Source of the DNA: Candidatus Woesebacteria bacterium
GTDB taxonomy: Bacteria; Patescibacteriota; Microgenomatia; UBA1400; MFAQ01
Assembly: GCA_035389185.1 (NCBI GenBank)
Contig: DAOORK010000001.1
Location: 631,415-695,414 of the forward strand
Reading direction: 5' to 3'
Length of the DNA stretch: 64,000 nucleotides
Numbering within the stretch: the first letter of the stretch is position 1; the number at the start of each line of letters is the position of its first letter. Of the stretch, positions 1,921 to 21,130 are shown in pieces. The notes under the pieces are model-generated. The model was given only the letters and a program-made list of their open reading frames with translations. It did no database searches and was not told the origin of the DNA. Made by a program: the position numbers and the translations under genes.

Positions 1921-2874
1921 ATGATTATTCATGCATTTATCTATTTGCTCTCGTTTATTGGTATTTGGGTAGGCTCTGGCTTGGCTATTAAGTCTGTAGA
2001 AAGGCTCTCTCAATCATTAAGGTTATCCTCGTTTGCCGTTTCATTCTTGGTTCTGGGTCTATTTACCTCCATTAGCGAGCTGTCCGTTGGAATTAACTCT
2101 GTCTTAGAGAACGACCCCGAAGTCTATGTAGGAAACCTCATAGGTGCATCAATTGTGCTATTTATGCTAATTGTGCCGCTTCTGGCGATTGTGGGCAATT
2201 CTATTCGTATTACGCCTGAACTTCAGGGTTTTAACTTGCCCGCTTCACTTGTAGTTATTGCTCTTCCAGTGATCTTGGCAATGGATGGAAGGGTAGGAAG
2301 AACAGACAGCATTATTGCCATGGCATTGTTTGGTTTTCTAATGATTAGTATCCAATCAAAACGAGGTTTATTAGAAAAAATAAAAAACATCAACCCACGA
2401 AATGGCGTAAAGGTTGGAAAAGAGCTGTTAAAAATTCTTTTTGGTGTAGCGGTTATTTTTGTTGCCAGTAAATTTGTAGTTGAACAAACTGTTTATTTTT
2501 CCAATTTTTTACATGTTTCTCCGTTCCTCATTAGTTTATTGTTGATAGCTATTGGCACGAATGTGCCTGAATTGTCCCTCGTCATTCGATCTGCATTCGT
2601 GCGTAATCATCAGATTGCTTTTGGTGATTATGTGGGATCTGCCGCTTTCAATACGCTTCTTTTAGGATTATTGACATTCTTTTATGGGAAGCCAGTGCTT
2701 TTGAATAATAGTTATGTAGTCAGCCTACTTTTTCTTATTGTGGGTTTAGTAGCTTTTTATTACTTTGCTAGGACTAAAAATACTATTTCGCGCGTAGAAG
2801 GTTTAGTGTTGTTGGCTTTATATGCCGCTTTTCTATTAACTGAGATTGGTATCCATGGAGGATTGAATTTCTAG
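1921..2874 (+). CDS. CaCA-family cation/Ca2+ antiporter (YrbG-like), two alpha-repeats
   Basis: 10-TM hydrophobic protein with alpha-repeat motifs SELSVGINSV...GNLIGASIV and GTNVPELSLVI...GSAAFNTLLLG. Confidence 0.65.
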   Translation: MIIHAFIYLLSFIGIWVGSGLAIKSVERLSQSLRLSSFAVSFLVLGLFTSISELSVGINSVLENDPEVYVGNLIGASIVLFMLIVPLLAIVGNSIRITPELQGFNLPASLVVIALPVILAMDGRVGRTDSIIAMALFGFLMISIQSKRGLLEKIKNINPRNGVKVGKELLKILFGVAVIFVASKFVVEQTVYFSNFLHVSPFLISLLLIAIGTNVPELSLVIRSAFVRNHQIAFGDYVGSAAFNTLLLGLLTFFYGKPVLLNNSYVVSLLFLIVGLVAFYYFARTKNTISRVEGLVLLALYAAFLLTEIGIHGGLNF

Positions 2875-4424
2875 TTAAGATTTGACAAAAATCGGGTCAC
2901 CTCTTTGTTGGTTAACTCTGGATATTCCAGATAATTTATCCAGTCAGTTGTCCGAAATTGTATCCATTTCTCGAGCCAAGCTTGACGATTGGCATAATTT
3001 AAGATTGTGTCGAATGGTTTTATCGCATCATATCGGACTATTTTGTCTTCCACTCTAAGGTTCGATAGTACGAGCTTGATTAACTGCCTTCTTTCCTCAA
3101 CTTCTGAACTTTTGAACAGCTCATAAGCCCGATTTGACAGTTCTAGCAGGTATTTAGCCGTGATGTAGTAGTTATCTTCGGCTTCTTGAAGCATTCCTAA
3201 GCGAGTAGTTATATCAGCCTTTTGCTCGTGGAATGACTGAAAGAATTTGTCATACTCATCGTCAGTAATACGCCCTTTGAGTTTATCGAGATAAAGGTTA
3301 TCCATCATTTTTGTTAGCGTTTTGTTCTCTTCATTGAGTTTGTCGAGTTGTTTATTGTGAAAGTCCATTTTGTCTTGATGAAGATTGCTGAGATTTCCGA
3401 CTACTTTATCTAAGACCCAATCGGGGATTTGTAATTGCTTAAATACATCGCCTATTTGCTCGGTAATTGTTTCTTCTCTTAGCCAATCAGCCCCGTGTTT
3501 ACCGTTGTATTGGGTGCAATGGTAATAGACGTGTCCTTTGTGTTTTTCTGGGGTTACAGCCAGCCCACAATGACCGCAACGTAGTAATCCTCGATAGATA
3601 TACGGTTTACCTGCATACTTAAAGGGTTTTTTGTTAAAGCTAGCTTTTACCTGTTGAACTTGGTCAAAAAGTTCTTTGGTTATGATAGGTATGTACTTGT
3701 GTTTGTATTGCTTGTTTTTCCAAGTCATTATGCCGTAGTAGAAGTGGTCTTTTAGAATTTTGTCGGTCATTCCCTTTGACCAATCAACCCCGTACTCGGA
3801 TTTTATCTTTTGTCTTAGTAACTCCATTGAGAAGCTACTGGTTGCATACCATTCATAGGCTTTTTGTACTACCTTTGAGGCAAAATCATCGACTACTATT
3901 TCTGTTTTATCTTTACTAATCGGTTCTCGTTTATAACCATAAGAAGGTCGAGAAGGATAAGTACCCATTCGAAGCATCTGTTCTTGGGCTCGTTTTACGT
4001 TATCGCTGATTGCGTCAGAGTAGTATTTGGCTAGCCCGAGGCTAATACTAAAATTAAACTTTTCTACTGCTGATAACTGGCTATTGATGACTTGTCCGTC
4101 CGAAACAAAATGAAGTTCTACCTCGTCTTTTAATGCTTTGTCATAAAGCATACCGACCCGTTTATCAAAAACATTTCGTGATAATCGGTCTACCTTGTCA
4201 AAACATACAGCGATTTTTTCTTTCTGTTCAAGAACATAGTCGAGGATATTATCAAAGTCATTACGCTTAGTCTTGTATGCACTTTCATCAAAGCTAAACT
4301 TTTCTAGTATTGGAAAGCCTTTGTTATTGCAGTATTTCTCAAGCCTAACGATTTGAGCGGGAAGAGAATTGCCAGCATCTTTTTGTTCTTCTGTGCTTAC
4401 TCTGGCAATTATTACTGCTTTCAT
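2871..4424 (-). CDS. large serine recombinase (resolvase/invertase N-domain, recombinase domain, zinc ribbon, coiled-coil)
   Basis: N-terminal IIARVSTEEQ and DRLSRN catalytic motifs; zinc ribbon CGHCG...YYHC; long C-terminal coiled-coil; 517 aa, typical LSR size. Confidence 0.85.
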   Translation of the reverse strand: MKAVIIARVSTEEQKDAGNSLPAQIVRLEKYCNNKGFPILEKFSFDESAYKTKRNDFDNILDYVLEQKEKIAVCFDKVDRLSRNVFDKRVGMLYDKALKDEVELHFVSDGQVINSQLSAVEKFNFSISLGLAKYYSDAISDNVKRAQEQMLRMGTYPSRPSYGYKREPISKDKTEIVVDDFASKVVQKAYEWYATSSFSMELLRQKIKSEYGVDWSKGMTDKILKDHFYYGIMTWKNKQYKHKYIPIITKELFDQVQQVKASFNKKPFKYAGKPYIYRGLLRCGHCGLAVTPEKHKGHVYYHCTQYNGKHGADWLREETITEQIGDVFKQLQIPDWVLDKVVGNLSNLHQDKMDFHNKQLDKLNEENKTLTKMMDNLYLDKLKGRITDDEYDKFFQSFHEQKADITTRLGMLQEAEDNYYITAKYLLELSNRAYELFKSSEVEERRQLIKLVLSNLRVEDKIVRYDAIKPFDTILNYANRQAWLEKWIQFRTTDWINYLEYPELTNKEVTRFLSNLN

Positions 4425-4427
4425 AGC

Positions 4428-5174
4428 TCATTTCTTGACTGGGGCAATTTGTCTTAGGTATGCGTCAAGAATAGCTTGTTTTAAGTTATCCGACTTTGCC
4501 TCGTAACTTGTAAATTCACCTATATTTTCTCTGTTGAAATGAAGTTGTCCTTCACCAACATTGCCCCTGTGTTGACCCGCTGAATAGTATTTATTTGTCG
4601 CTACTTCGGTTGAAGAAAAGACCCAATATCTAATAACATCTCTCCAAACACCCATCCATACAAATACATCGCAACACTTGGGTTTAACTTGTTGGAAGTT
4701 CATATCAAAAGGCATATCCTCATCTTTTGAGAGAGCCTTTATGTATAAGGGTTCGTGACTATTAAAATCAACAGCCCTTGATGCTTTTACTTCGATTGTA
4801 ACGAACTTGTTATCATCTACGTTTAACATAAAGTCGTATTGACCTGCATAGTTGGGGTCGATTTTTTTGGTCGGTTTAACTAAGTCAGGCACTAACTCTT
4901 TCAAATGTCCTTGAGCCCACAATTCCCCAAAACCTCTTGGGGCACTTATCTCGAAGATATGGAGGTACATATTTCTAGCGATATATTCATCTCTCATCAA
5001 GTAATAATCATCAAGGTTAAGTTTCTTTAACCCCAAGAGAGTAGAAATGATAAATTCATACTCGTTAAAAGGATAAACGGACATTAAGTTATCCAGTTTT
5101 TGCCTCAAAACGGCTTCTTCATCCTTGGATAGCTGAGATATTAAGCTGTCTAATTGGTGTTTTAATGATTGCAT
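4428..5174 (-). CDS. candidate PD-(D/E)xK restriction endonuclease, cognate to the adjacent N6A methyltransferase
   Basis: Motif YDFML...VTIEVKASR fits a D...(E/D)xK nuclease core. The gene starts 2 nt after the upstream MTase gene ends, same strand. Confidence 0.4.
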   Translation of the reverse strand: MQSLKHQLDSLISQLSKDEEAVLRQKLDNLMSVYPFNEYEFIISTLLGLKKLNLDDYYLMRDEYIARNMYLHIFEISAPRGFGELWAQGHLKELVPDLVKPTKKIDPNYAGQYDFMLNVDDNKFVTIEVKASRAVDFNSHEPLYIKALSKDEDMPFDMNFQQVKPKCCDVFVWMGVWRDVIRYWVFSSTEVATNKYYSAGQHRGNVGEGQLHFNRENIGEFTSYEAKSDNLKQAILDAYLRQIAPVKK

Positions 5175-5176
5175 AA

Positions 5177-7126
5177 TTACTTTCTTATTGAATTTTTAAT
5201 ATATTGTTTTTCATCTGTTGTTAGACCAAAGGCATCAAAAACGAACTCATTTAGCTTATCTTCGAGTTTATCCTTTTGAGTACCAGATAACAAATTATCT
5301 ACATCCTTTTCGATTTCGGCAAGAGTTTTATCGTCTATTTGTGGAAAGGGTAATAGTTCAAGGTCGCCTCTTAATACTTTGACCGTATTGAATTTCTTTT
5401 TCCATAAGTATTGAAAGATATTTGAGTTAAGAAAAACCAATACTACTTTTGTCGGGATTTCTGGAATTTTCGGGATGAGTATATTTGCACTATTGAGGGT
5501 TAGAGTTTGCTTATAGTCATAAGCAAAGGCAAGCTCACTTGAAATGAATTTGTAAATCAGCTTCTCCTTCGCTCGATATTTCCATACTGGAGCAACTTGT
5601 TGAAATTCGTCAGGTGTAAATTTGATAAATGAAGTAGCGGGATTAAATGTATATTTCTGTATATCCGAGCCTTTTAGTACCCCCTCATTATTATCTGTTT
5701 TGGTAGTCGAAATAAATTTGCCATTATTACCTGTAACGATACCCAATGCCCAATCTGCATTATCTTTCAATGTAGTGAAACTGTGTTTGTAAATTTTAGC
5801 TATTAACAGTTCGTCTTTTTCAGTAATACTTGTATCAAATGCGAAATCTGAATTATTTATAAATCTGTTCTGCTTGATTTTTGACACAAGTCCATCTTTT
5901 TGCGTAACCTCAATTTCGTTCTGAGCGTCACTTCTTTTTTGAATGGTCAACGTTATTACTGGTGACAACACTTTGCTAAAAACGTTACCTAAATGTTTGA
6001 TGCTTTTTATAGCACTACCCCTTAACAGAAAATCTCTAACATCTCGATGCTGTTTTACCTTTGTAACCGCTTCTGGTAGCACGTAGCAAAGAGAGCCATT
6101 ATCGTTCAATAGACTTAAACCCCTTACTAAAAAGTATGAAAAGGCCTCGTTCGAAATGATATTTGGATAAACCTTTCTCAACATTTCACTTTCTTCTTTT
6201 GAGAAGTGGTAACCCCAAGGTGGATTTGTTGCAATGATGTCAAACCTACCATCAGGGTTTTCTGTGAGGCTGTTTGCTACAAACATATTTGGATAAAAAT
6301 CAATTTCTGGATAGGTTGTTATAAGGTTTATTTTTGCAATCTGTACTGCTATTGGGTCAATATCGTATCCCCATAAAAGTAGCGGGTCAGGGATATACCT
6401 AGAAAAAGCAACAAGAAACTGTCCCGTTCCACAACAGGGGTCGAGAACCTTTGAGCCCTTCTTTATCTGACTAGATAAGTCTTCAACGATACCATCAATT
6501 AGTGTTTTAGGGGTGTAATAAGAACCGCCTTGGGACTTTTTACCCTCGTCGAGCAAGGATTGATATAAAACACCAAGGCTGTCAAAGCTGAACACATCAT
6601 CTACGTTTAGTAATTCTTGAAGGTCAGAAAGATTTATCTTTCCTAGTTTTTCTTCCCATTCAAGTATTACCTTCTTTATATTATTGTTCTTGAATTTAAC
6701 TTCACTTAGGGTTGAAACAAATTTATCGAAGGTCGCTAATTTGGTTTTTTTTAGAACAGAAAGACTGTGAATGAGTAGGGCGGTTTGGAGTGGTACTTGG
6801 TTTTTATTTATCTGTTCGATATAAGACTGTAATAGAGGTAGTTTGTCTTTATGACTTAATTGTTCAATAGGGATAAAGGTAGATTTTGAATTTCTTTTAT
6901 TCGCTCTATTGTTTAGTCGTTCGGTTTTTCCATTATGAATGTCGGTTTTAAGTTGTTCAATTTGTTTCTTTTCTAATAATTTTCCGCTACCCATTGGGGA
7001 ATAAGCCAGTTGACCTGTTTTAATCCAATTCCTTACGGTAGCAGTGGATACACCCAACAGCTCACTAGCCCGAAGAATGTCGAGTAGGTCTGCTTGGTCA
7101 TTTTCAAAAAGGCTAACTTGCTTCAT
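5177..7126 (-). CDS. gamma-class N6-adenine DNA methyltransferase with N-terminal excisionase/MerR-like HTH and C-terminal target-recognition region
   Basis: HTH LLGVSTATVRNWIKTGQL; motif I VLDPCCGTGQF; motif IV IIATNPPWGY; about 300 aa of TRD-like C-terminus. Confidence 0.8.
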   Translation of the reverse strand: MKQVSLFENDQADLLDILRASELLGVSTATVRNWIKTGQLAYSPMGSGKLLEKKQIEQLKTDIHNGKTERLNNRANKRNSKSTFIPIEQLSHKDKLPLLQSYIEQINKNQVPLQTALLIHSLSVLKKTKLATFDKFVSTLSEVKFKNNNIKKVILEWEEKLGKINLSDLQELLNVDDVFSFDSLGVLYQSLLDEGKKSQGGSYYTPKTLIDGIVEDLSSQIKKGSKVLDPCCGTGQFLVAFSRYIPDPLLLWGYDIDPIAVQIAKINLITTYPEIDFYPNMFVANSLTENPDGRFDIIATNPPWGYHFSKEESEMLRKVYPNIISNEAFSYFLVRGLSLLNDNGSLCYVLPEAVTKVKQHRDVRDFLLRGSAIKSIKHLGNVFSKVLSPVITLTIQKRSDAQNEIEVTQKDGLVSKIKQNRFINNSDFAFDTSITEKDELLIAKIYKHSFTTLKDNADWALGIVTGNNGKFISTTKTDNNEGVLKGSDIQKYTFNPATSFIKFTPDEFQQVAPVWKYRAKEKLIYKFISSELAFAYDYKQTLTLNSANILIPKIPEIPTKVVLVFLNSNIFQYLWKKKFNTVKVLRGDLELLPFPQIDDKTLAEIEKDVDNLLSGTQKDKLEDKLNEFVFDAFGLTTDEKQYIKNSIRK

Positions 7127-7289
7127 ATTTCTTTAAGAATTGGGATAAATTATCCTTGCTTATTCTGTATTGTTTGCCAGCTTTGTATGCAATTAAGCGG
7201 TTGGCACGTATCCAACGGTATACGGTCAGATATGCAACTTTGAGGGTCTTGGCCACTTCCTCGATGGAAAAGTATTGCTCGTCAGTCAT
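7113..7289 (-). CDS. excisionase-family HTH DNA-binding protein (Xis-like)
   Basis: EEVAKTLKVAYLTVYRWI...GKQYRI matches the excisionase/MerR HTH pattern; start set at the internal Met. Confidence 0.55.
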   Translation of the reverse strand: MTDEQYFSIEEVAKTLKVAYLTVYRWIRANRLIAYKAGKQYRISKDNLSQFLKKYEAS

Positions 7290-8430
7290 ATAAGTTATAT
7301 TTATCATTATTTAACATTAACCCTTCAAAATCAACTAGTTTTAATGGTTCAAAACGGGTCAAATGTTCACGGATTACCCCGAGTGGGCTTTTAGTCGTTG
7401 GAAGTTTTATTGTTTTAGCTTCTGCAATCAACCTATACCAACTTCTTTGACCATATTTACCAAACATATTTCTAAGTTCACGAGGGGTTGTGCTATCAAA
7501 TGCCTGCTTTAATCCAAAGAGTTGCATTGTCTTCCGTATACCGATATGAGGATTATTGATTGCAAGGTCTGCTAACAATGAGTTGGAGGTCGTCGGTTTG
7601 TAATCAAATAGGAGTAGCCGCTTGCTCTCTAGCTCATCGAGGTGGTGAAGTAAAATCCGTTGAGCGATTGTTGGGTTAAATAGGTTTTTTAAGGTCAATT
7701 CGGACTGGATACCCAAAGTACGGAATAGCTGTCCTATCTTTTGGCGTTTGTTAAGTCGTACTTCCATTCTCAATACCTCTAGTCGCTTTCTTTCTTTGAA
7801 AGCTTCAAAAAGATTGAGTTGTATGGCGTTATCGCCCTCGATTGCTCGCTTTTCGCTTTTGTTAGCCATTTCAAGGTCTTTTAGCTTGTCATAAAAGGCA
7901 ACCTCGTATGAGTTGCTATGCCATTTGAAGCTATGACCGTCGTTGCGGTAGTCCGTTTGGTTTACATCTAATGCCAATGAGAAATTTGCTTGTTTAATCT
8001 TACCTATAAGCAAGTGAGGAGTTGTACCGTTAGTCAGGGGTATATTTTTGGAGTAATGAATTGCTGAAACAGGGGCATTTTCCAATATGCTCGTAAAGAC
8101 CCCGACACCCATTTCTTTTAGCCTTGACTGTAAAAGTGCGACAACTGGCGTAAAGTCTGTCTCGCCTAATTCGTCAAAGTTGTTTCCGTATAGTAGTTTG
8201 GGTGCTGAAAACTCTATGGCTAAGGTAGCTTCGTGCCTTCCCGTTGTATTAAATCTTTTGGTCATAGTCAATCTTGGTTTATAAATACCGTTTTTCAACT
8301 CTGATTTGGTAGGGTTTTGCACGAGCGTAAAATAACCCCTCAAAGCGTTTTGTGTTTCTTTTTGAAAGTATGTTTTATCCATAACCCAAAACATATCTTT
8401 ACTAAGTGTTAGTCTTATTGTGTCCAACAT
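7282..8430 (-). CDS. putative replication initiation protein of the element (Rep_trans-like)
   Basis: 382-aa protein in an operon with Xis and the recombinase; weak resemblance to rolling-circle/phage replication initiators; no motifs confidently assigned. Confidence 0.35.
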   Translation of the reverse strand: MLDTIRLTLSKDMFWVMDKTYFQKETQNALRGYFTLVQNPTKSELKNGIYKPRLTMTKRFNTTGRHEATLAIEFSAPKLLYGNNFDELGETDFTPVVALLQSRLKEMGVGVFTSILENAPVSAIHYSKNIPLTNGTTPHLLIGKIKQANFSLALDVNQTDYRNDGHSFKWHSNSYEVAFYDKLKDLEMANKSEKRAIEGDNAIQLNLFEAFKERKRLEVLRMEVRLNKRQKIGQLFRTLGIQSELTLKNLFNPTIAQRILLHHLDELESKRLLLFDYKPTTSNSLLADLAINNPHIGIRKTMQLFGLKQAFDSTTPRELRNMFGKYGQRSWYRLIAEAKTIKLPTTKSPLGVIREHLTRFEPLKLVDFEGLMLNNDKYNLYD

Positions 8431-8695
8431 ACATTTTTGTTACATCTTCAAACTTAGAAATGATTACTTTTTCGATTTCTTCCGCAACTTTTCGGTTAAT
8501 CGGATGAAAGATATTGAAATTACCATTTGCACCTTTGCGAGTGGGGTAGGTCAACCGATACCCGCCTTGCGGTCTGGTATAGATACCGATTGACCCCATA
8601 TAAAAGCTGTCGTTATAGACTAAGCTCGCAAAACCCACTAGACCATCCGTTGGTTTAACTGGCACTACTTGAATTTCGCTTATACGGTTTTGCAT
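8402..8695 (-). CDS. SpoVG-like nucleic-acid-binding protein
   Basis: Aligns with SpoVG: VVPVKPTDGLVGFASLVYNDSFYMGSIGIY...NIFHPINRKVAEEIEKVI versus the SpoVG ...GRMRAIASITLD...FVVHDIRV...ITHPINSSTR pattern. Confidence 0.55.
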   Translation of the reverse strand: MQNRISEIQVVPVKPTDGLVGFASLVYNDSFYMGSIGIYTRPQGGYRLTYPTRKGANGNFNIFHPINRKVAEEIEKVIISKFEDVTKMYVGHNKTNT

Positions 8696-8937
8696 ACTTT
8701 CTCGTTACGTTTTGACCGTCGGTCAATTTGGATAAGTAAGGAAAAGAAGTCGGTTAGTCGTTTTAGCTCATCGGCAGGCAGAATGGGACCTTGTACGGGC
8801 CGTGTTTGCTCTTGTGGTGTTGGTTTGACGACTTCACTCGTTTCCATTGAGCAAAGTCTAGAAAACACTCGGAGGATTGTCGTTGTGGTAGGGAGAACTA
8901 GGTACTCTTAGGTATAAAAAGGGACAAAAGGGGACGT

Positions 8938-9981
8938 TTAGTGAGGGAGTACTAGCTTACCCCCACCTTTTACAAGCTTGATAAGAGGTTTCTTCATTTC
9001 TTCTAAATCCTTCTTTGTTATCGGATTTCTGAACTCAATAGCATTCTTTGACACGCTAAAGAAAACCTCTTTTGTATCTCCTTCAAAGCCCAGGTTTTCA
9101 ACTATCTTGTGTAGTGATTTAGTTAGTTTTCCTCCTACAGTTTTTTCAATTTCATCTATACCTATTCTTCTATTCGGGTTCTCATATAAGAACGAAAAAA
9201 CTAGGTCATTTTCGCTGTTAAAATCTGGTCTGCCTATTTGGGCGTTATTCATTAAGATTTGCCTCTGTTTGGTATAGGTAATCTCATAAACAACGACAGT
9301 TTCATCAGGGGATTTGTTGGAGGTTTTGTCTTCTTGCTCTTCTTTATTGATATTTATGTTTTTTTGCCCAAAATTGTTTACTTGCTCCAATACCTCAAAA
9401 AATCTTGCTATATTCAGAGTTAAGCCTGACGATAATGTCATATAAGCGGTGGTAAAGTTTTTGACTACGCCTATATTCTTGAGATAAGTTAAGCTTCTTA
9501 TATAGGTATTGATTATGTCGTCTACGTCCTCAGGCTCATAGCCTTCAATTTCTCTGGCTGAAGAAATAAAGTCTATTGCAAGTTTTTCGGATTGGACTAA
9601 CTCTAGTTGTTCCTCAATCAAATGCATTATGTGGCTAATATTCTTAAAGTTTGTTTCCGATAGGTTTTCTATTGTACTTTTTTGCTGGATAAGATACTGA
9701 GCATACCAATCGTCAAATTTCGGATTTATATCAACGAGTAGATAGTCAAGATTTTTAGGCTGTGAGCTAGGTGATAGCAGTCTGTTGTAAATCGGGTTTA
9801 TGGTTAAAATCTTGTTTTCGTATTCGAGCTTAGAAAGTATGTCCTGAACCTCTTCTTTCCCGATTTTTTCTAAGAAATTATCCTCTTTAATATACAGTTT
9901 AGTTGAGTGTTCATTTCGTGAGGCTTTTTTTGCTTCAACTAATGCTTTGAGAATTAAACCAAGTTTTACTTCGTATTTCAT
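8938..9981 (-). CDS. hypothetical protein (347 aa, island-encoded)
   Basis: Long ORF with island-like A-rich codon usage; no recognised motifs. Confidence 0.5.
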   Translation of the reverse strand: MKYEVKLGLILKALVEAKKASRNEHSTKLYIKEDNFLEKIGKEEVQDILSKLEYENKILTINPIYNRLLSPSSQPKNLDYLLVDINPKFDDWYAQYLIQQKSTIENLSETNFKNISHIMHLIEEQLELVQSEKLAIDFISSAREIEGYEPEDVDDIINTYIRSLTYLKNIGVVKNFTTAYMTLSSGLTLNIARFFEVLEQVNNFGQKNININKEEQEDKTSNKSPDETVVVYEITYTKQRQILMNNAQIGRPDFNSENDLVFSFLYENPNRRIGIDEIEKTVGGKLTKSLHKIVENLGFEGDTKEVFFSVSKNAIEFRNPITKKDLEEMKKPLIKLVKGGGKLVLPH

Positions 9982-10027
9982 AGGTCATTACATCTTCAAA
10001 TTTATCTTTGATTATAATTGCTTAATA

Positions 10028-10813
10028 ATGAAAAAGTATCGGCTTTATATTGACGAGTCTGGTAGTCATGAATATTCGGATAAGGATTCTATAAAGAGTC
10101 GTTATTTGGGTCTGCTAGGTGTAGTGGTGGAGTCTGGCGAGTATGAAACCAATATCCAGCCTAGGGTTATTGAACTCAAAAAAATGTTTTCGAATGACGC
10201 AGATGATTTGGTAGTATTACACCGTGATGAAATTGCTAACTTACAAGGACCGTTTTCAAAGCTATCCGATGAGGAATTTAAGAATAACTTTGACAGTAAA
10301 TTAAAAAGTTTGTTTAAAGAAGGGGAGTACCTCTTGCTTGGTGTTGTCTTAGACAAGAAAACTCATTATGCTCGCTACAAAACATCTGCTCTACACCCTT
10401 ATCATTACTGTCTCAATGTTATTTTGGAAAGATATGTCTTTTATTTAGAAGAAGTGGGAGGAGTCGGGGATGTAATGTCAGAAGCTAGAGGTAAAAATGA
10501 AGATAGTGCTTTAAGGGGTGCGTATTCTAACTTTTTTAACAATGGAACGTATTTTTGTAAGGCTCCACGAGTTCAGGCAAAATTAACTTCGAAAGCGATT
10601 AAGCTGAGAACAAAAGAAAACACGACTCAAGGACTAGAAATGGCTGACTTGCTGGTCTTAGCAACTAAAATTCTCATTCTCTTCTTATATAAGAAGATTG
10701 GACCATTAACTGGTAATTTCAACAAACAGGTAATGAGATGGGTTTGGTCCAAGTTCAGGCGTGAGCTAATATCCAAGAGAGTTAAGGGCTATGGAATAAA
10801 GTTGATTGAGTAA
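10028..10813 (+). CDS. DUF3800-family protein
   Basis: Starts MKKYRLYIDESGSHEY, the characteristic DUF3800 N-terminal YxDESG motif; start set at the internal ATG at 10028. Confidence 0.55.
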   Translation: MKKYRLYIDESGSHEYSDKDSIKSRYLGLLGVVVESGEYETNIQPRVIELKKMFSNDADDLVVLHRDEIANLQGPFSKLSDEEFKNNFDSKLKSLFKEGEYLLLGVVLDKKTHYARYKTSALHPYHYCLNVILERYVFYLEEVGGVGDVMSEARGKNEDSALRGAYSNFFNNGTYFCKAPRVQAKLTSKAIKLRTKENTTQGLEMADLLVLATKILILFLYKKIGPLTGNFNKQVMRWVWSKFRRELISKRVKGYGIKLIE

Positions 10814-10922: not shown

Positions 10923-12614
10923 CTAGGCACAAATTGGTTGAATTTTGAAGGTTTCAAACACTGTTTGGATGTTCTGTAAGCTAAATCCAAACTTTATTTC
11001 TCGGTTCTTAAATGCGTTTACCAAGGGGAGCCAAGCTGGATTTGAAGGTATCAAAAGAGGATTATTGAGCTGTATATCGCGATATTCCTGAGATTCGATC
11101 CAATCTTCTTTTAATTCCGACCATTTTTCTTGATTTGCGAAGACTTTATAGCGTTCTTTCAGATCTATCCGTACTTTTTTGTTGTGTAAATAGAGGTTCG
11201 ATCCAACTTTGTTGAGGATGTAGCGTTTATCTTCAACCTCGCCATTCATAAATCTATCTCTGGCACGGTTGGCATAGTCAATGGTTGTGCGTATTGCCTT
11301 ATACTCATTTTGACTGTTATCGCTTAAGAGTAGAGCCTTGAGTTGCTCAATCTTCTTATTTAGCTCCCGTTTTTTGCTTTCATAGGTAGTTTCGTCAATG
11401 CTGTTGTTTAGGTAAACATCTAAAAGACGATCTAGACTTGTTTGTGCCTTATCAAGCGCTGACTTTTGAGATTTCTTGATATCGGTAGCCTCATCAGCTT
11501 TACTCTGCTCAAGATAGTCAATCCAGCGGTTTGCCCAGTCGATAAAATCTTGGGGTGGTTTTATTTTTTCAAGTTCTTGAGCAGTTTCAGCTTTTAGATC
11601 TATTTCTGTTATTGGATCTTCGTGACATTCAATCTTATGGTTTTTTCTGGTGCAGTGGTGGTAGGTGTAGGTAACAGTTCTATTTGTTCCTCTGTAATAC
11701 TTGGTTTTGACAGTTCCGGTTATGGAGCATCCACAGGTTTCGCATAGGTACAGCCCGTTTAAATCGAGCCTGTGGCTTCTACGTACAGGTCTTCCTTTTC
11801 TGCCGAGCATTTTTTGTATTTGGTCAAACTGTTCTGGTGTGACCATGGCTTGGTGTCTACCGTGATACCACTTCCCACTCCCTTTTGGCCATTCATAATC
11901 GCCGGAATAGAAAGGATTTGTTAATAAGTTGTAAAAAGTTGACCTTGGTATCGGTAGACCAGCCTTGTTTGTTAATTTCCACACGTCTGTTGCTGTTTTC
12001 CAAATGTCGATTACTTGCTCACCGTCAAGGACTTTGAGTAACGATTTTCTAATGAGGTCAAACCTTTTTTTGTCTGGTCTAATTGTTTTGTAGCCCTTTT
12101 TCCCTAGGGGATTGTTTTTATATCCAGTTGGCGCTGGGGCGGGGTACCAACCCTTTTCTGCTTTAGTACGCATACCACGTTGGGAGCTTATTCCCTTATT
12201 GTCGTTTTCTAGCTTTGCTTGACTGCAATCAAGATTGAAAAGGAATTTATCATAGGGGTTGTCTTTATAAACCCTTGAAGCAGTGGTTATTTGCAGGAGG
12301 AACTTTTGATCCATGAGATATATCAACGCTCCAGTATCAACCGAGTTTCGCGATAACCGATCAGCACTCCAAGCAAGGATGGCGTTTGCTTCACCGTTCT
12401 TAATTTTCTCGAGCATTGTATTGAAGGCTAATCTCCCGGGTTTCTTGGCTGATTTTGATTCTGAAAGTGTCTCGGTTGTTTTTAGCTTGTTATTTGATTT
12501 GATGCGATCAAGTTCTTTTGTTTGGGATTCAAGCGAAAGGGCTTGTCTCTCCTCTGATTCTGAAGACTTACGGCAATAGACTATGTGTTTAATTGTTTTT
12601 GTTTCTTCGTTCAT
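10923..12614 (-). CDS. large serine recombinase, second copy
   Basis: IVYCRKSSESEERQ...DRLSRN resolvase domain; recombinase domain; zinc ribbon CETCGC...YHHC; C-terminal coiled-coil. Confidence 0.85.
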   Translation of the reverse strand: MNEETKTIKHIVYCRKSSESEERQALSLESQTKELDRIKSNNKLKTTETLSESKSAKKPGRLAFNTMLEKIKNGEANAILAWSADRLSRNSVDTGALIYLMDQKFLLQITTASRVYKDNPYDKFLFNLDCSQAKLENDNKGISSQRGMRTKAEKGWYPAPAPTGYKNNPLGKKGYKTIRPDKKRFDLIRKSLLKVLDGEQVIDIWKTATDVWKLTNKAGLPIPRSTFYNLLTNPFYSGDYEWPKGSGKWYHGRHQAMVTPEQFDQIQKMLGRKGRPVRRSHRLDLNGLYLCETCGCSITGTVKTKYYRGTNRTVTYTYHHCTRKNHKIECHEDPITEIDLKAETAQELEKIKPPQDFIDWANRWIDYLEQSKADEATDIKKSQKSALDKAQTSLDRLLDVYLNNSIDETTYESKKRELNKKIEQLKALLLSDNSQNEYKAIRTTIDYANRARDRFMNGEVEDKRYILNKVGSNLYLHNKKVRIDLKERYKVFANQEKWSELKEDWIESQEYRDIQLNNPLLIPSNPAWLPLVNAFKNREIKFGFSLQNIQTVFETFKIQPICA

Positions 12615-15447: not shown

Positions 15448-15514
15448 ACTTTTCTCATTATAACGCTATGTTTACTGCGTTGTCGTCAAGGACGGATACT
15501 ACCACACTTATCTT

Positions 15515-15733
15515 GTGATATCCAAAGAAAAACTGAGCAAACTGATTGGGAAGCGAATTAGAGAGGAGAGGGAGAAAAGGGGGTTGTCGCAAGAAGCCTT
15601 AGCCGGTGACGCGGGTCTGTACAGGACTTATGTCGGTCACCTTGAAAATGGGAGGTATATGCCGACCATATTTACGATTTATCGTGTGGCTGAAGTGTTA
15701 AAGATCGATCCCCTGAGTTTGCTTAAGATTTAA
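15515..15733 (+). CDS. XRE-family HTH regulator, likely controller (C) protein of the downstream R-M module
   Basis: GLSQEALAGDAGLYRTYVGHLENG HTH; 72 aa; GTG start; lies just upstream of the C5-MTase gene. Confidence 0.65.
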   Translation: MISKEKLSKLIGKRIREEREKRGLSQEALAGDAGLYRTYVGHLENGRYMPTIFTIYRVAEVLKIDPLSLLKI

Positions 15734-15790
15734 ATTGTTGAGTTTGACGACCTGCTCGATTAAATCGTCATTGTTGGTTACAATGGGTGT

Positions 15791-16855
15791 ATGGCAAAGA
15801 AAATTAGGGTTGTAGACCTATTCTGTGGTATTGGTGGTCTAACCCATGGACTGATCAAGGAAGGTCTAGAGGTGGTGGCGGGAATAGACAACGATAATTC
15901 ATGCAAGTTTGGTTACGAGCATAACAATAGGGCAAAATTTATCGGTAAAGATATTCTTGAGGTTACGGCTGGTGAGGTAAGTAAGTTGTTTGGTAAAGGG
16001 GCGATCAGAGTCCTTGCGGGATGTGCTCCTTGTCAACCTTTCTCCAGATTGAATCTTAAAGAAATAACAAAAAAGCAACTTCAGCCACTTGAAAAATTTG
16101 CACAGTTGATTGAGGAGGTTAAGCCAGATATTGTTTCCATGGAAAATGTTAGTGAGTTGGCAAAAATGGACAAATATCCCATTTTTAAGACTTTCCTTGA
16201 TACCTTGGAAAGGAATGGTTACAGATATAAATATGAAGTTGTTGATGTTTCCGAATACGGCGTCCCCCAAAGCAGGAGGAGGCTTGTTTTGTTGGCTTCA
16301 AGATTTGGCGAGATTGAATTGGTGAAGCGGACACATAAAGACAACCGTGTGACTGTAAAAGACGTTATAAGAGATCTTGAGCCGATTCGGGATGGCGAAG
16401 TAAGTAGGAAAGACCCTCTCCATCGATCAAGAAAACTAAACGAGATTAATCTTAGGAGAGTAAAAGCTACTCCCCATGATGGTGGGGATTCGAGTGCGTG
16501 GAGTGAAGATCTTATTCTGAAATGTCACAGAAAAGAGTCTGGAAGTACTTATAAAAAAACTGTTTATGGTCGTATGCGATGGAATGAGCCAGCGCCTACA
16601 ATGACGACACAGTGTGTTGGGTTGGGAAATGGCCGTTTTGGTCACCCAGAGCAGGACAGGGCAATTAGCTTAAGGGAAGCGGCACGGTTTCAAACCTTTC
16701 CTGATAACTATCAGTTTTTTGATCCAAATACTCCATTTGTGACTGCTCATATAGCTAGGTTTATTGGTAATGCCGTGCCTGTGAGGCTAGGGTCTATAAT
16801 TGGGGCAAGTATAAAAATGCATATAAGTAGAAATGCCAAATCAATTCACATTTGA
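15791..16855 (+). CDS. dcm: DNA (cytosine-5)-methyltransferase
   Basis: Motif I LFCGIGG; motif IV GCAPCQPFS; motif VI MENV; motif X RFIGNAVPV. Confidence 0.9.
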   Translation: MAKKIRVVDLFCGIGGLTHGLIKEGLEVVAGIDNDNSCKFGYEHNNRAKFIGKDILEVTAGEVSKLFGKGAIRVLAGCAPCQPFSRLNLKEITKKQLQPLEKFAQLIEEVKPDIVSMENVSELAKMDKYPIFKTFLDTLERNGYRYKYEVVDVSEYGVPQSRRRLVLLASRFGEIELVKRTHKDNRVTVKDVIRDLEPIRDGEVSRKDPLHRSRKLNEINLRRVKATPHDGGDSSAWSEDLILKCHRKESGSTYKKTVYGRMRWNEPAPTMTTQCVGLGNGRFGHPEQDRAISLREAARFQTFPDNYQFFDPNTPFVTAHIARFIGNAVPVRLGSIIGASIKMHISRNAKSIHI

Positions 16856-18545
16856 GTTATCACTAAGTGTCCTAAATCATTTAGGCAGAAACCTTTATAG
16901 AAGCTTCGTCACAATATTGGGGGAGGCGATCTCAAATTCATGGGATGCAGATTCAAATAAGGTCAACATATACATTGATCGTGAACACAACAGCCTGTGT
17001 GTTAGAGATGATGGTGTGGGAATGACTGCTGATGAATTTCAGAACAAGTTTCTGAGAATTGGCTATTCAAAACGTAATTCTGAAGGTAGTAGCTCACCTG
17101 CTGGTAGACCTTATATAGGTAGAAAGGGTATCGGGAAGCTCGCTTTACTTTCATGCGCTGACAAGATTCATGTCATTAGCAAAAAAAGTGGTGGTGAATA
17201 TGTAGGAGGTGTGGTGGTTAACTCTGAGCTTGATGATGCAATCAGAGATGATTTATTGACTTCTCAATATCCACTGTCTGATATGGATATGAGCAAATTT
17301 GAGGACGTGATTGGTGGTCATGACCACGGGACAATAATATATTTTGAGAACATAAAAGATGGGGTTAAGAATAGTTTGACGTTTTTAAAGAAAGCTATTG
17401 CGTTGTATTTTCGTTTTTCGTTGATTGATCAATCGTTTAAGATTTTTTTAGGAGACGATGATGAAATTACTTACGCCGATCTCGAGGATTTATCGAGCAA
17501 AACAGAGTTTTTGTGGAAGGTAGGTGAATATGAGGATCCGTATGTAGAGAACTTAGAGGCTCGTTTTACTACAAAAGATAATGAGAAGAGGGGGATTGAA
17601 ATTGATGGAGCTTATGGTTTTGTTGCCTCTGTAAAAAAGCCGCGTGATCTAAAAATCTTGACCACTGATGAGCGGGTGGGGGTTGACTTGTTTGTAAACG
17701 GGCGTTTGAGAGAAAGAGATATTTTGAAGCACATCCCCACAGCAAGGTTGGCGGAAAACTATTTATATGGACAGATTCATCTTGACGATATGAATGACGA
17801 GCAAGATCGTTTCACAAGTAGTCGTGAAAGCGTTGTAGCGGATGACGATAAATATGAGCAATTCTTGGAAGTAATGCGAAGTAAAATATTGGAGATTGTT
17901 AACGACTGGGATAAATGGAGAATTAAGCACAGGGAAGATGGGGATCAGGAAAACGATAATATGCCTAAGGCAGAGAGAAAGTCGAGAGAGCTGTTTAATC
18001 AGATCGCTGGAGAATATGAATTGCCATCGGGAAATGCTAATGCTGGAAAAGTAGATGCATGGGTTGATTCATTGGCTGATGACGCTCAATACAACTTTCG
18101 TTCGTATGCAGAGTGCTTTGTATCCGAGAATTTGCTTCGTAAGCATATTGAAGATGGCGGTGTGGCACCTACGTCTTGTATGAACCCCGATTTGCAGGGA
18201 AATACATGTGAAGATAGATTTGATGAAGAAGCTGGTAATACCAGCTTGTGTAGTTTTTGTAAGGCTGAGAGAAGTAAACAGGGATTGCAAATTCAAAAGA
18301 ACGAAGCGGGAACGTCGATACAGATCAGAGAAGCAGAAGAGAATCCATTAATGTATATGGATTACATAGATCTAGCAAAGATAGCCGACGATGACATACT
18401 CAAAGAAGAAGATAAACCATATAAGCCATTGAGAAACTCGGTAATGCACACTTCGAGATTGACACAAGCTGCTAAGACGAAGTTGACCTCTGTTTTTGAT
18501 AATGTTGTTGCGACTGTAAAGCAGTTGGTCGGGTCTAACAGTTGA
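16833..18545 (+). CDS. GHKL (Bergerat-fold, MORC/MutL-like) ATPase, candidate restriction/defence component
   Basis: N-box EAISNSWDA; G1 DDGVGM; G2 GRKGIGKLA; Cys-rich C-terminus; the gene overlaps the dcm 3' end by 23 bp. Confidence 0.7.
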   Translation: MPNQFTFELSLSVLNHLGRNLYRSFVTILGEAISNSWDADSNKVNIYIDREHNSLCVRDDGVGMTADEFQNKFLRIGYSKRNSEGSSSPAGRPYIGRKGIGKLALLSCADKIHVISKKSGGEYVGGVVVNSELDDAIRDDLLTSQYPLSDMDMSKFEDVIGGHDHGTIIYFENIKDGVKNSLTFLKKAIALYFRFSLIDQSFKIFLGDDDEITYADLEDLSSKTEFLWKVGEYEDPYVENLEARFTTKDNEKRGIEIDGAYGFVASVKKPRDLKILTTDERVGVDLFVNGRLRERDILKHIPTARLAENYLYGQIHLDDMNDEQDRFTSSRESVVADDDKYEQFLEVMRSKILEIVNDWDKWRIKHREDGDQENDNMPKAERKSRELFNQIAGEYELPSGNANAGKVDAWVDSLADDAQYNFRSYAECFVSENLLRKHIEDGGVAPTSCMNPDLQGNTCEDRFDEEAGNTSLCSFCKAERSKQGLQIQKNEAGTSIQIREAEENPLMYMDYIDLAKIADDDILKEEDKPYKPLRNSVMHTSRLTQAAKTKLTSVFDNVVATVKQLVGSNS

Positions 18546-18741
18546 TATGACTCTAAAACGGGCTAGAAGAATCTTAGGGAAAAATGGGAAAGGGCTCACT
18601 GATGGAGAGCTTACAAAAGAGATTGAGATGGCAAGTTTTCTTGCGCAATTGGTTTTAAGTGTTGCGCGAACTAAAAAGCTGCCTTAGCCTTAATAAGCTA
18701 TAATTTCGGTTGGGAATACATATTCTTGATTGAAGAAAAGA

Positions 18742-19959
18742 ATGGCAAATAAGAATCTATCAAAAGCAAAAAACGCAAAGAACGATGAGTTTTATACTCA
18801 ATTTCTCGATATTCAAAAAGAAATTGAGGCGTATCTGGAGTATGACCCTAACACTTTCCGTAGCAAAGTGGTTTATAGCAATTGTGACGATCCGTTTGAA
18901 AGCAATTTTTTCAGATACTTTGTACTTAATTTCAATAAACTTGGGTTAAAACAGCTTATTACCACAAGTTATAAACCATCGCCGGTAGCCAATACGCAAC
19001 TACTGCTGTTTGGTGATGATATAACGCTTGCAAAATCTAAAGGACGTCCGAAAATAACGGCTAACAAATTTATTATCAACGAAGTTCGTGACCTAGATGG
19101 TGATGGTGAGTTTAATCTTAAGGATGTTGCTACCCAACTTAAATCAAATAAACACAACGAGTGGTGTCCTTTAGAGGGAGACGGTGACTTTCGTAGTGAT
19201 GAGTGTATAGAACTCCTAAAGCAATCGGACATTGTGGTAACCAATCCTCCATTTAGTCTCTTCCGAGAGTATGTTAGACAACTTGTGGACTACGACAAGA
19301 AATTTGTTGTTATTGGCAATATGAACGCAATTACTTATAAGGAAATTTTCCCACTAATTAAAACAAACAAATTGTGGCTGGGAGCAACCGGAAATGGTAG
19401 TGATATGGTTTTTGCAGTGCCAAATGGTACTGAAATAGCGGAGTCTGATAGGCAGAAGGCGGCCAGACTGGGGTATGTTGGGAATTATACGAGACTTGGC
19501 AATTCTTGCTGGTTCACAAACCTTGATCATGGGAGACGTCATAAACCGCTGCCATTAATGAAGGAAGCTGATGTAATAAAATTCAGCACAAAGAAGCCGT
19601 TTGAAAAATATGACAACTACGATGCAATTGAAGTTTCAATGGTTAAAAATATCCCCAGTGATTATGGTGGTGTTATGGGTGTGCCTATTAGTTTTCTGGA
19701 TAAATATAATCCTGATCAATTTGTGATTTTAGGAGCGACACAGAGAGGCTGTCACGACGAGGTTCCTGATACGAAAAAATACGATGATTATTGGGAAGTT
19801 AGACAAAACGGCGAAAGAACAGGATCATCTGGAGGAAAAACGAATGAAAACGCAAATTTGGTGGGTAACGATGGTAAGAAGAACTATTTTATAAATAATG
19901 AGGGTCGTATAATTCAGTCAGCCTATCAAAGAATCTTTATAAGGCGCAAAAATAAATAA
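18742..19959 (+). CDS. EcoRI-methylase-like adenine (NPPF) DNA methyltransferase
   Basis: N-terminal AKNDEFYTQ; catalytic motif [10 protein letters not shown]; ATG at 18742 chosen over the TTG at 18730. Confidence 0.65.
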
Positions 19960-19960
19960 T

Positions 19961-21130
19961 ATGCATACAACATTAAGGACTACTATTTCTGTAAAAGATA
20001 TATGTGATGGTTTTGTATACAACGAATTGGAAGGTAAAGGACTGTTCGGTTTATCTGGCAATCTGACTATCCAACCCGAATATCAACGAAATTATATTTA
20101 CGCTTCAGATGGTGGAAAAAGAGAGATAGCGGTCATTGATTCTATACTTAGAGATTATCCTATTGGCTTAATTTATTTTAATAAACTTTCCGACGATAAG
20201 TTAGAGGTTTTAGATGGTCAACAGCGTATCACTAGTATTGGACGTTTTGTCACAGATAAATTTGCAATTAAAGACGAGAATGGAATGGAACAGTATTTCA
20301 GCGGCTTGGCAAGTGATAAGAAAACCAAGATATTAGAGACAAAACTGCTGATCTATGAATGTGAAGGAGCAGAAAGTGAGATAAAAGAATGGTTCAAAAC
20401 AATCAACATTGCCGGTGTTCCGCTTAATGATCAAGAATTATTGAACGCGGTTTATTCTGGGCGTTTTGTAACTATGGCTAAAGAGGAGTTTAGTAATAGT
20501 CAAAATGCTAACATCCATAAATGGAGTGCTTACATAAAGGGGAGTGTTAACAGACAAGAGTTTTTGGAGCGAGCTCTTGAATGGGTGAGTAGGGGAAAGA
20601 TTGGTGATTATATGAGTCTTCATCGTAATGATGGTGACATTGATGAGCTAAAAACCTACTTTAATACTGTAATTGACTGGGTATCGAGTGTCTTTGTAGA
20701 TGTCGAGAGTGAAATGAGTGGATTAGAGTGGGGAAGAATGTACGAGCAATATCGTGAAAATACCTATAACCCCATCAAAATATCAGAAGATGTACATAGA
20801 CTTTACGGAGACCCTTATGTAAAAAATCGTAAAGGAATTTTTGAATATATACTTGGTCGTTCTAAAAACGCGAGATTGCTGGATGTCAGGGTTTTTGATG
20901 AAGTAACTAAGAAGTCGGTTTATACAAGACAGACTGATTTGGCAAGATCTAAGGGTGAATCGAACTGTCCCCTTTGTGCAATTGGTCATGACGCTGCTAA
21001 GTCTAAAGTTTGGGAGTTTGGAGAGATGGACGCTGACCATGTAGCAGCGTGGAGCAAGGGCGGGGCAACTAACCCCAGTAACTGCCAGATGCTCTGCAAA
21101 ACGCACAATCGAGCAAAAGGAAATCGATAA
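19961..21130 (+). CDS. DUF262 (ParB/Srx-like, DGQQR) N-domain fused to an HNH nuclease; candidate restriction endonuclease (GmrSD-like)
   Basis: [13 protein letters not shown]; C-terminal CPLC...[12 protein letters not shown]...[13 protein letters not shown]/Zn-finger; starts 1 nt after the MTase stop. Confidence 0.7.

Follow-up and report, generated by a model that had tools for sequence, protein, structure and literature searches.

Restriction enzymes built on an ATPase of the GHKL type have been described in several forms that differ at their C-termini. Orlowski and Bujnicki identified, besides R.HgiDII, four other subfamilies of GHKL-containing restriction endonucleases (REases) with unrelated C-termini, one of which, R.NmeAIP, carries the domain named “Hypoth_Ymh” (PMC2441816). 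Iyer et al. linked the paraMORCs, also of this broad type, to cytosine methylases (PMC2292703), and Anantharaman et al. 2013 assigned Ymh to the HEPN domains, reported paraMORC-Ymh fusions in restriction-modification (R-M) neighborhoods, and proposed for them a PrrC-like RNase role (PMC3710099). For one protein that combines GHKL with DUF4263, defense against phage has been observed experimentally (PMC12137116). The locus considered here encodes a GHKL protein that invites comparison with all of these. It lies in a stretch of 64,000 nucleotides (“the window”) from an assembly of a Candidatus Woesebacteria bacterium (GCA_035389185.1, contig DAOORK010000001.1, positions 631,415 to 695,414), in which a block of five genes specifies a small regulator resembling the “control” (C) proteins of R-M systems, with a helix-turn-helix (HTH) fold; a C5 cytosine DNA methyltransferase; the GHKL protein; an EcoRI-family N6-adenine (m6A) DNA methyltransferase; and a nuclease in which DUF262 is joined to an HNH zinc finger.

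Comparison of the block with related loci indicates that it probably consists of two autonomous cassettes of the restriction-modification type placed in tandem, with the C-like HTH gene at their head, and that both are the cargo of a serine-recombinase island. Cassette A comprises the C5 methylase and the GHKL protein; cassette B comprises the m6A methylase and the DUF262-HNH nuclease. The block is for the most part ordinary, without a new multi-gene defense architecture, and cassette B is ordinary as a whole. Cassette A appears to belong to a kind that has already been described computationally and whose mechanism has been predicted; it offers a modest lead and would be the only part of the block to merit follow-up.

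Separate inheritance of the two cassettes

Regions around homologs of each putative nuclease were assembled into two locus sets and scored for the five window proteins. The DUF262-HNH set (n = 118) is made up of 80 loci from species-representative genomes, which cover many bacterial phyla together with DPANN archaea, and 38 viral or proviral loci. The GHKL set (n = 139) is made up of 80 metagenome loci and 59 viral loci, the former fetched with an alignment query, as a single-sequence GHKL query of metagenome contigs gave none.

An EcoRI-like methylase gene stands directly upstream of the DUF262-HNH gene in 104 of the 118 loci (72/80 genome, 32/38 viral or proviral), and most of the eight genome loci that lack it have less than 1.1 kb of sequence upstream of the nuclease gene. 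Neither the GHKL protein nor its C5 methylase is found in any of the 118 loci (0/80 genome, 0/38 viral or proviral). Around the GHKL homologs, the C5 methylase gene is present in 136 of 139 cases (58/59 viral; 78/80 metagenome, where its position is nearly always directly upstream or overlapping), with DUF262-HNH in only two loci (2/80 metagenome, 0/59 viral) and the m6A methylase missing from 137. When all flanking open reading frames (ORFs) were clustered, no third conserved gene emerged in either locus set; the next commonest real flanking gene after the cassette partners is a large serine recombinase. Because each pair occurs without the other, and because no third gene is conserved with either, the pairs are best regarded as two autonomous two-gene cassettes. 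The initial annotation, made from the sequence of the window alone, had instead proposed a single five-gene system, and had suggested gene-neighborhood conservation as a check on it; what is conserved is not the block as a unit but the two separate pairs. The associated idea that two methylases of different chemistry serve one asymmetric (Type IIS-like) site fares no better, since the methylases sit in different, independently inherited cassettes.

Only in the closest clade of the GHKL protein (62-66% identity), which was covered by seven locus look-ups and a re-scan that included L081-L083, are cassettes A and B found adjacent. If C denotes the regulator, M5C and M6A the two methylases, and R the DUF262-HNH nuclease, the order in the window is C-[M5C-GHKL]-[M6A-R]. 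In all closest-clade relatives that carry both cassettes the order is the opposite, with B ahead of A: [C]-[M6A-R]-[M5C-GHKL] in L081 and L266, whose R is 75% identical to that of the window; C-[M6A-R]-[M5C-GHKL] in L267-269 (at least five contigs), whose R is only 36% identical; and the same order as in L267-269 in L082, L261, and L262, where R is 39% identical. In L270 the place of cassette B is taken by a different R-M type, giving C-[HindVP-type REase, C5 methylase, Vsr]-[M5C-GHKL], and in L083, L263, L265, and L271 cassette A has no B-type neighbor. The statement in the initial annotation that no described system shows this combination therefore fails: the five genes do recur, since closest-clade loci carry both cassettes, in related elements where the order is swapped and the cassettes are exchanged. 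Swapped order, very divergent B cassettes, and a slot that is empty or filled by another R-M type are the signature of cassette shuffling rather than of an obligate five-gene machine.

Gene and domain content

The list of ORFs and a motif search agree with the initial annotation on the five plus-strand genes, their coordinates, motifs, and spacings; profile searches of Pfam, PADLOC, and NCBIfam back each of its domain assignments, and its view of the block as defense-related stands as well. The profile matches of all five genes are strong, far beyond chance (Table 1). The C5 methylase contains FCGIGG, PCQPFS, ENV, QSRRR, and GNAVP; the GHKL protein contains EAISNSWDA, DDGVGM, and GRKGIGKLA; the m6A methylase contains NPPF (19243-19254); and the DUF262-HNH protein contains DGQQR followed by a zinc finger of the pattern CxxC...DH...N...CxxHN. 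The genes for the C5 methylase and the GHKL protein share 23 bp, 184 nt separate the GHKL gene from the m6A methylase gene, and a single nucleotide separates the latter from the DUF262-HNH gene. For the m6A methylase, an ATG at 18742 is a likelier start than the one at 18730.

Table 1. Features of the five-gene block and of the adjoining mobile region, in window coordinates.
Feature	Position	Strand	Length	Evidence
C-protein-like XRE/HTH regulator, head of the array	15515..15733	+	72 aa	Pfam HTH_3 (7e-15); PADLOC Control_protein (1.8e-12)
Cassette A methylase, C5 cytosine DNA methyltransferase	15791..16855	+	354 aa	Pfam DNA_methylase PF00145 (8e-61); PADLOC MTase_II (2e-85)
Cassette A effector, whole GHKL ORF	16833-18545	+	570 aa	
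Effector residues 1-375, GHKL ATPase and middle (transducer/S5-like) module	16833..17957	+		Pfam HATPase_c_3 over residues 25-122 (7e-22); NF050001; Foldseek
Effector residues 378-570, all-helical HEPN-like C-terminal domain	17964..18545	+		
RNSVMH (R534-H539), invariant Rx4H motif, HEPN signature	18432..18449	+		Homolog alignment
Cys4 insert (C449, C459, C473, C476) in the HEPN-like domain	18177..18260	+		Homolog alignment
Cassette B methylase, EcoRI-family N6-adenine DNA methyltransferase	18730..19959	+	409 aa	Pfam EcoRI_methylase PF13651 (1.6e-127); PADLOC MTase_II (5e-108)
Cassette B nuclease, DUF262 (ParB/GmrS-like) and HNH zinc-finger endonuclease	19961..21130	+	389 aa	Pfam GmrSD_N/DUF262 (4e-21) and HNH (9e-7); PADLOC PDLC03418
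Large serine recombinase in the mobile island around the block	10923..12614	-		Resolvase and Recombinase domains
Second large serine recombinase	2871-4424	-		
Methylase, N6_Mtase, TaqI_C and Eco57I-like, with N-terminal HTH_17	5177-7126	-	649 aa	
Unassigned ORFs, three	4428-5174, 7282-8430, 8938-9981	-		
DUF3800 protein	9947-10813	+		

The EcoRI-like methylase and DUF262-HNH nuclease

Members of the DUF262-HNH family normally come with a methylase partner. The initial annotation had regarded such coupling as unusual; it is in fact the rule, given the 104 paired loci, the lack of upstream DNA in most of the exceptions, and an end-to-end match to a PADLOC model for Type II enzymes. This model, REase_II PDLC03418 (“Type II restriction enzyme”), aligns over its positions 7-371 of 372 with an E-value of 1.1e-81. 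The C-terminal nuclease is recognized in Pfam as a classical HNH (PF01844) together with HNH_5, with no DUF1524, and a phmmer search of PDB sequences with the protein returned no match. More than 8000 homologs are present in the databases; the best 120 of these are all 78-82% identical to the window protein, and one identical protein is known from a Candidatus Woesebacteria metagenome-assembled genome. DGQQR (20213-20227) and the residues C336, C339, D359, H360, N374, C375, C379, H382, and N383 (20966-21109) are invariant down to a homolog of 41% identity. The nuclease, under the annotation “DUF262 protein,” and an “EcoRI family methyltransferase” also occur as a pair on plasmids of Moraxella, Pseudarthrobacter, and Microbacterium, and plasmid records of Enterococcus and other genera, read for the nuclease gene only, contain it as well.

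By its domain content and conserved partner, cassette B is most likely an ordinary Type II-like pair. In such a pair the methylase would protect the sites of the host, the HNH zinc-finger domain would cut unmethylated DNA, and the ParB-like DUF262 domain would probably contribute DNA or nucleotide binding, or control dependent on nucleoside triphosphates.

The DUF262-HNH family is unusually uniform for one whose hosts include Patescibacteria, Proteobacteria, Bacteroidota, Chloroflexota, Firmicutes, and DPANN archaea (the 80 genome loci, L001-L080, and database matches). For the partner methylases, identities span 42-86%, and both long and short C-terminal forms occur. This spread suggests partner exchange, although part of the contrast between a uniform nuclease and a varied methylase is sampling bias, the nuclease having served to select the loci. 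For the same reason, namely that loci had been picked by nuclease similarity, the apparently greater conservation of nucleases than of methylases (pairwise 81% versus 60% in cassette B, 63% versus 54% in cassette A) was dropped as evidence.

The GHKL protein of cassette A

The initial annotation considered the DUF262-HNH protein the only nuclease candidate of the block. The GHKL protein is, however, an effector in its own right, with an N-terminal region of 370 residues that resembles HgiDII and BbrUII, a HEPN-like C-terminus, and a methylase of its own. It belongs to a family of more than 4600 database proteins, for which PADLOC has no dedicated model. NCBIfam NF050001 (BbrUII/HgiDII family restriction enzyme) matches its residues 5-374 with an E-value of 1.4e-87; the score of 294.8 bits is under the cut-off of 550 bits, and the match is limited to profile positions 1-372 of 659. 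A true member of NF050001, from a Halobaculum plasmid, reaches 800.8 bits over positions 1-659 and has WLLDPSW...D...IIDLKR, a PD-(D/E)XK-like signature, in its C-terminus; a relative from a viral contig has the same C-terminus. These NF050001-type relatives likewise have a C5 methylase as partner, with about 50% identity to that of the window.

Alignment of homologs shows the ATPase residues E31 and N35, D59-G63 (D59xGxG), and G96-K102 to be invariant. Foldseek alignments of a full-length model of the protein with the N and M domains of Hsp90, TRAP1, and GRP94 and with SMCHD1 and MORC2 extend over about 400 columns (E about 1e-10). An architecture of GHKL ATPase, transducer, and HEPN-like domain is assigned because of this structural alignment and of domain homology. 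Cassette A thus resembles an HgiDII-type system that would have kept the same kind of methylase partner while its effector was swapped.

The swapped part is a domain of about 190 residues that stands where members of NF050001 have their PD-(D/E)XK-like C-terminus. It is predicted by AlphaFold2 to be all-helical, and confidently so (pLDDT, the model’s own confidence score, 89.9). Among 29 homologs that are 57-67% identical, E432, N433, R436, R534, and H539 are invariant, with R534-N-S-V-M-H539 forming an Rx4H motif. An exhaustive hidden Markov model search of 1.84 billion representatives found the domain solely at the C-terminus of the same GHKL family (229 matches). Pfam, searched with residues 370-570 and with three homologs at E-values up to 10, returned no family, Ymh (PF09509) included; a profile of the domain had no match among PDB sequences, and a Foldseek comparison of the domain with the PDB gave nothing significant, with generic bundles interleaved. 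The domain is called HEPN-like with moderate confidence. Within it, the four-cysteine insert is kept in the subfamily of the window protein and missing from most homologs; it probably forms a zinc-binding loop.

A mechanism can be proposed on this basis. The C5 methylase would mark self DNA, and a dimer or clamp of the GHKL protein, driven by ATP, would engage target DNA that is unmethylated, as HgiDII-type relatives must. Engagement of DNA would activate the C-terminal domain, which, if it is a true HEPN, would act as a metal-independent RNase; in that case RNA rather than DNA would be cleaved, with growth arrest or abortive infection as the outcome. Cassette A would then be an effector-swapped sibling of the HgiDII-type enzymes, a form of “restriction” that reads self and non-self on DNA and strikes RNA. 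This is advanced tentatively, as a possibility worth stating rather than the expected outcome. If the RNase activity is real, self-recognition through methylation would be coupled to abortive defense at the level of RNA; the prediction from sequence dates from 2013.

Alternative readings of the block

The five genes are co-oriented and tightly spaced, and the same five appear again in L081 and in the P0126 contigs L267-269, as would be expected if they formed one system in which two methylases guard the two strands of an asymmetric site and DUF262-HNH, with help from the GHKL protein, is the sole nuclease. Nearly always, however, each half occurs without the other (0/118; 2/139); the cassettes follow each other in opposite order in the window and in L081 or L267, cassette A elsewhere adjoins an R-M system of the HindVP type or stands alone, and the GHKL protein has both an effector domain and a methylase partner of its own. 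The distribution largely refutes such a five-gene system, which must be considered very improbable. It is also conceivable that the cassettes are separable and yet cooperate, either because the GHKL-HEPN protein is a second line like PrrC or RloC, checked by or monitoring a neighboring R-M system that cuts DNA, or because both are under joint control of the C protein. Anantharaman et al. 2013 (PMC3710099) proposed the second-line role for paraMORC-HEPN fusions, and in the closest clade it is common for cassette A to come after a complete R-M cassette, with one HTH gene ahead of both. Cooperation nevertheless appears unlikely in light of the GHKL loci at large, most of which have no second R-M system within 8 kb; the C5 methylase is the only conserved partner of the GHKL protein, and the type of neighboring cassette varies.

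For cassette B, the DUF262 N-terminal domain common to GmrSD, BrxU, and SspE (PMC12707154, PMC4619093), along with weak PADLOC matches to HEC-05/06, might point to a stand-alone, modification-dependent (Type IV, GmrSD-like) enzyme beside a methylase that is there by chance, an option that the initial annotation had also named. Conserved pairing contradicts it: the methylase is directly upstream in 104 of 118 loci, across many phyla and on plasmids too. Nor does the nuclease domain, a classical HNH, correspond to DUF1524, and in PADLOC the protein is best matched, over the full length, by a Type II REase model; the probability left to a Type IV enzyme is close to nil. For cassette A, the C-terminal domain could be a helical bundle for dimerization or regulation, so that the C5 methylase and GHKL protein would depend on a nuclease encoded elsewhere or function with no cleavage at all, clamping or silencing unmethylated DNA in a MORC-like way, for instance; this is rather unlikely, if less so than cooperation between the cassettes. 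Another alternative is that the domain cuts DNA. Several observations do count against two autonomous cassettes with the properties proposed here. A B-type cassette lies beside A in 4 of about nine distinct closest-clade loci (the window counted), above the expectation for random neighbors, and a small probability is accordingly kept for functional or regulatory interplay of the cassettes, for example through a shared C protein. Literature searches yielded no experimental study of GHKL-HEPN proteins and no activity, HEPN-type or other, for the family, nor did they yield a REBASE name for the enzyme family behind PDLC03418. Moreover, no recognition sites can be inferred from palindrome statistics of the window, in which many palindromes, including CATG, GGCC, GATC, and TATA, are mildly depleted and GAATTC and GTCGAC are not distinctive.

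Regulator, mobile island, and wider window

The Type II R-M operons of PvuII and Esp1396I are examples of control by a C protein. In the tandem arrangement proposed here for the window, the C-like HTH would probably time expression of the array after transfer. A small HTH gene is also at the head of the array in L081, L267-269, and L270; most homologous cassettes lack one. Short TCGTCA/TGACGA repeats lie on both sides of the C-like gene, upstream at 15478-15492 (TGTCGTCAAGGACGG) and downstream at 15746-15771, where TGACGA-N14-TCGTCA lies between it and the C5 methylase gene; they could be C-box-like operators. Scans for promoters and terminators gave sites no more frequent than in shuffled sequence.

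In the gap between the GHKL and m6A methylase genes there is an ORF of 46 aa (MTLKRARRILGKNGKGLTDGELTKEIEMASFLAQLVLSVARTKKLP, 18547-18687) that begins 1 nt past the GHKL stop codon. It may be spurious or lineage-specific, because tblastn found no homolog in 160 related loci or elsewhere in the window.

Besides the recombinase nearest to the block, the same mobile patch holds a DnaD/HTH_36-like protein. Homologs of that recombinase lie next to one of the two cassettes in about 11/80 and 3/80 of the related loci and likewise in L081. A second mobile or defense patch (2871-10813; Table 1) adjoins the block, giving three DNA methylases within 18 kb overall, and no tRNA genes that would mark an integration site were found. 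At the scale of the window, GC skew is positive over almost the whole 64 kb, often at 0.3-0.5, with the first 10 kb or so near zero or slightly negative; cumulative skew climbs steadily from about 6 kb, and downstream of 15.5 kb nearly all genes are on the plus strand.

Comparison with known systems

The block illustrates how, in Patescibacteria, a C-like regulator on a serine-recombinase island can be followed by R-M cassettes that accumulate in tandem and are reshuffled. In having a small XRE-type HTH gene immediately upstream of R-M genes, with a PADLOC Control_protein match, it resembles the Type II operons controlled by C proteins. It differs from them in that what follows the HTH gene is a tandem array, not one nuclease gene, and in that only the short repeats, in place of an established canonical C-box, hint at operators.

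The nuclease of cassette B shares with GmrSD, BrxU, and SspE an N-terminal DUF262 domain (ParB/Srx-like, with DGQQR) followed by a His-Me finger nuclease. In those enzymes the nuclease is DUF1524 (PMC12707154, PMC4619093), whereas in the window protein it is a zinc-finger HNH (PF01844); genes of the window type, moreover, are almost always preceded by a methylase that looks cognate, and their best model is a Type II REase rather than GmrSD. The pair thus corrects a common assumption, as DUF262 nucleases are not exclusively modification-dependent.

Cassette A represents a very widespread methylase-linked GHKL protein in which the sensing module of a restriction enzyme is retained and a HEPN-like domain occupies the place of the DNase. 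Its nearest described counterparts, R.HgiDII and R.BbrUII (NF050001; PMC2441816), have the same two-gene architecture, with a C5 methylase partner (theirs of the M.HgiDII type) and a GHKL and middle module that can be matched over about 370 residues (295 bits). Their C-terminal region of 290 residues, with WLLDPSW...D...(D/E)xK, is absent from the window protein, which has the HEPN-like domain of 190 residues instead. In VcSduA, the paraMORC3-type Shedu (PMC12137116), a GHKL ATPase likewise controls a C-terminal effector within one polypeptide, but that effector is a PD-(D/E)XK DNase and has no methylase partner.

Closest in predicted function are the paraMORC-HEPN(Ymh) fusions (PMC3710099) and the putative REase R.NmeAIP (PMC2441816), in which a GHKL/S5 ATPase is joined to a C-terminal HEPN-type domain beside DNA methylases, as predicted from sequence only. 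The window protein’s C-terminal domain differs in that it has no Pfam Ymh match and has sequence relatives only within its own GHKL family, and cassette A includes no separate DNase for a HEPN domain to back up. PrrC and RloC also fuse an ATPase to a C-terminal HEPN and are genetically associated with DNA modification systems. Their ATPases, however, are of the ABC type and they depend on a complete neighboring R-M system, whereas the ATPase of cassette A is of the GHKL type and its methylase is the sole conserved partner.

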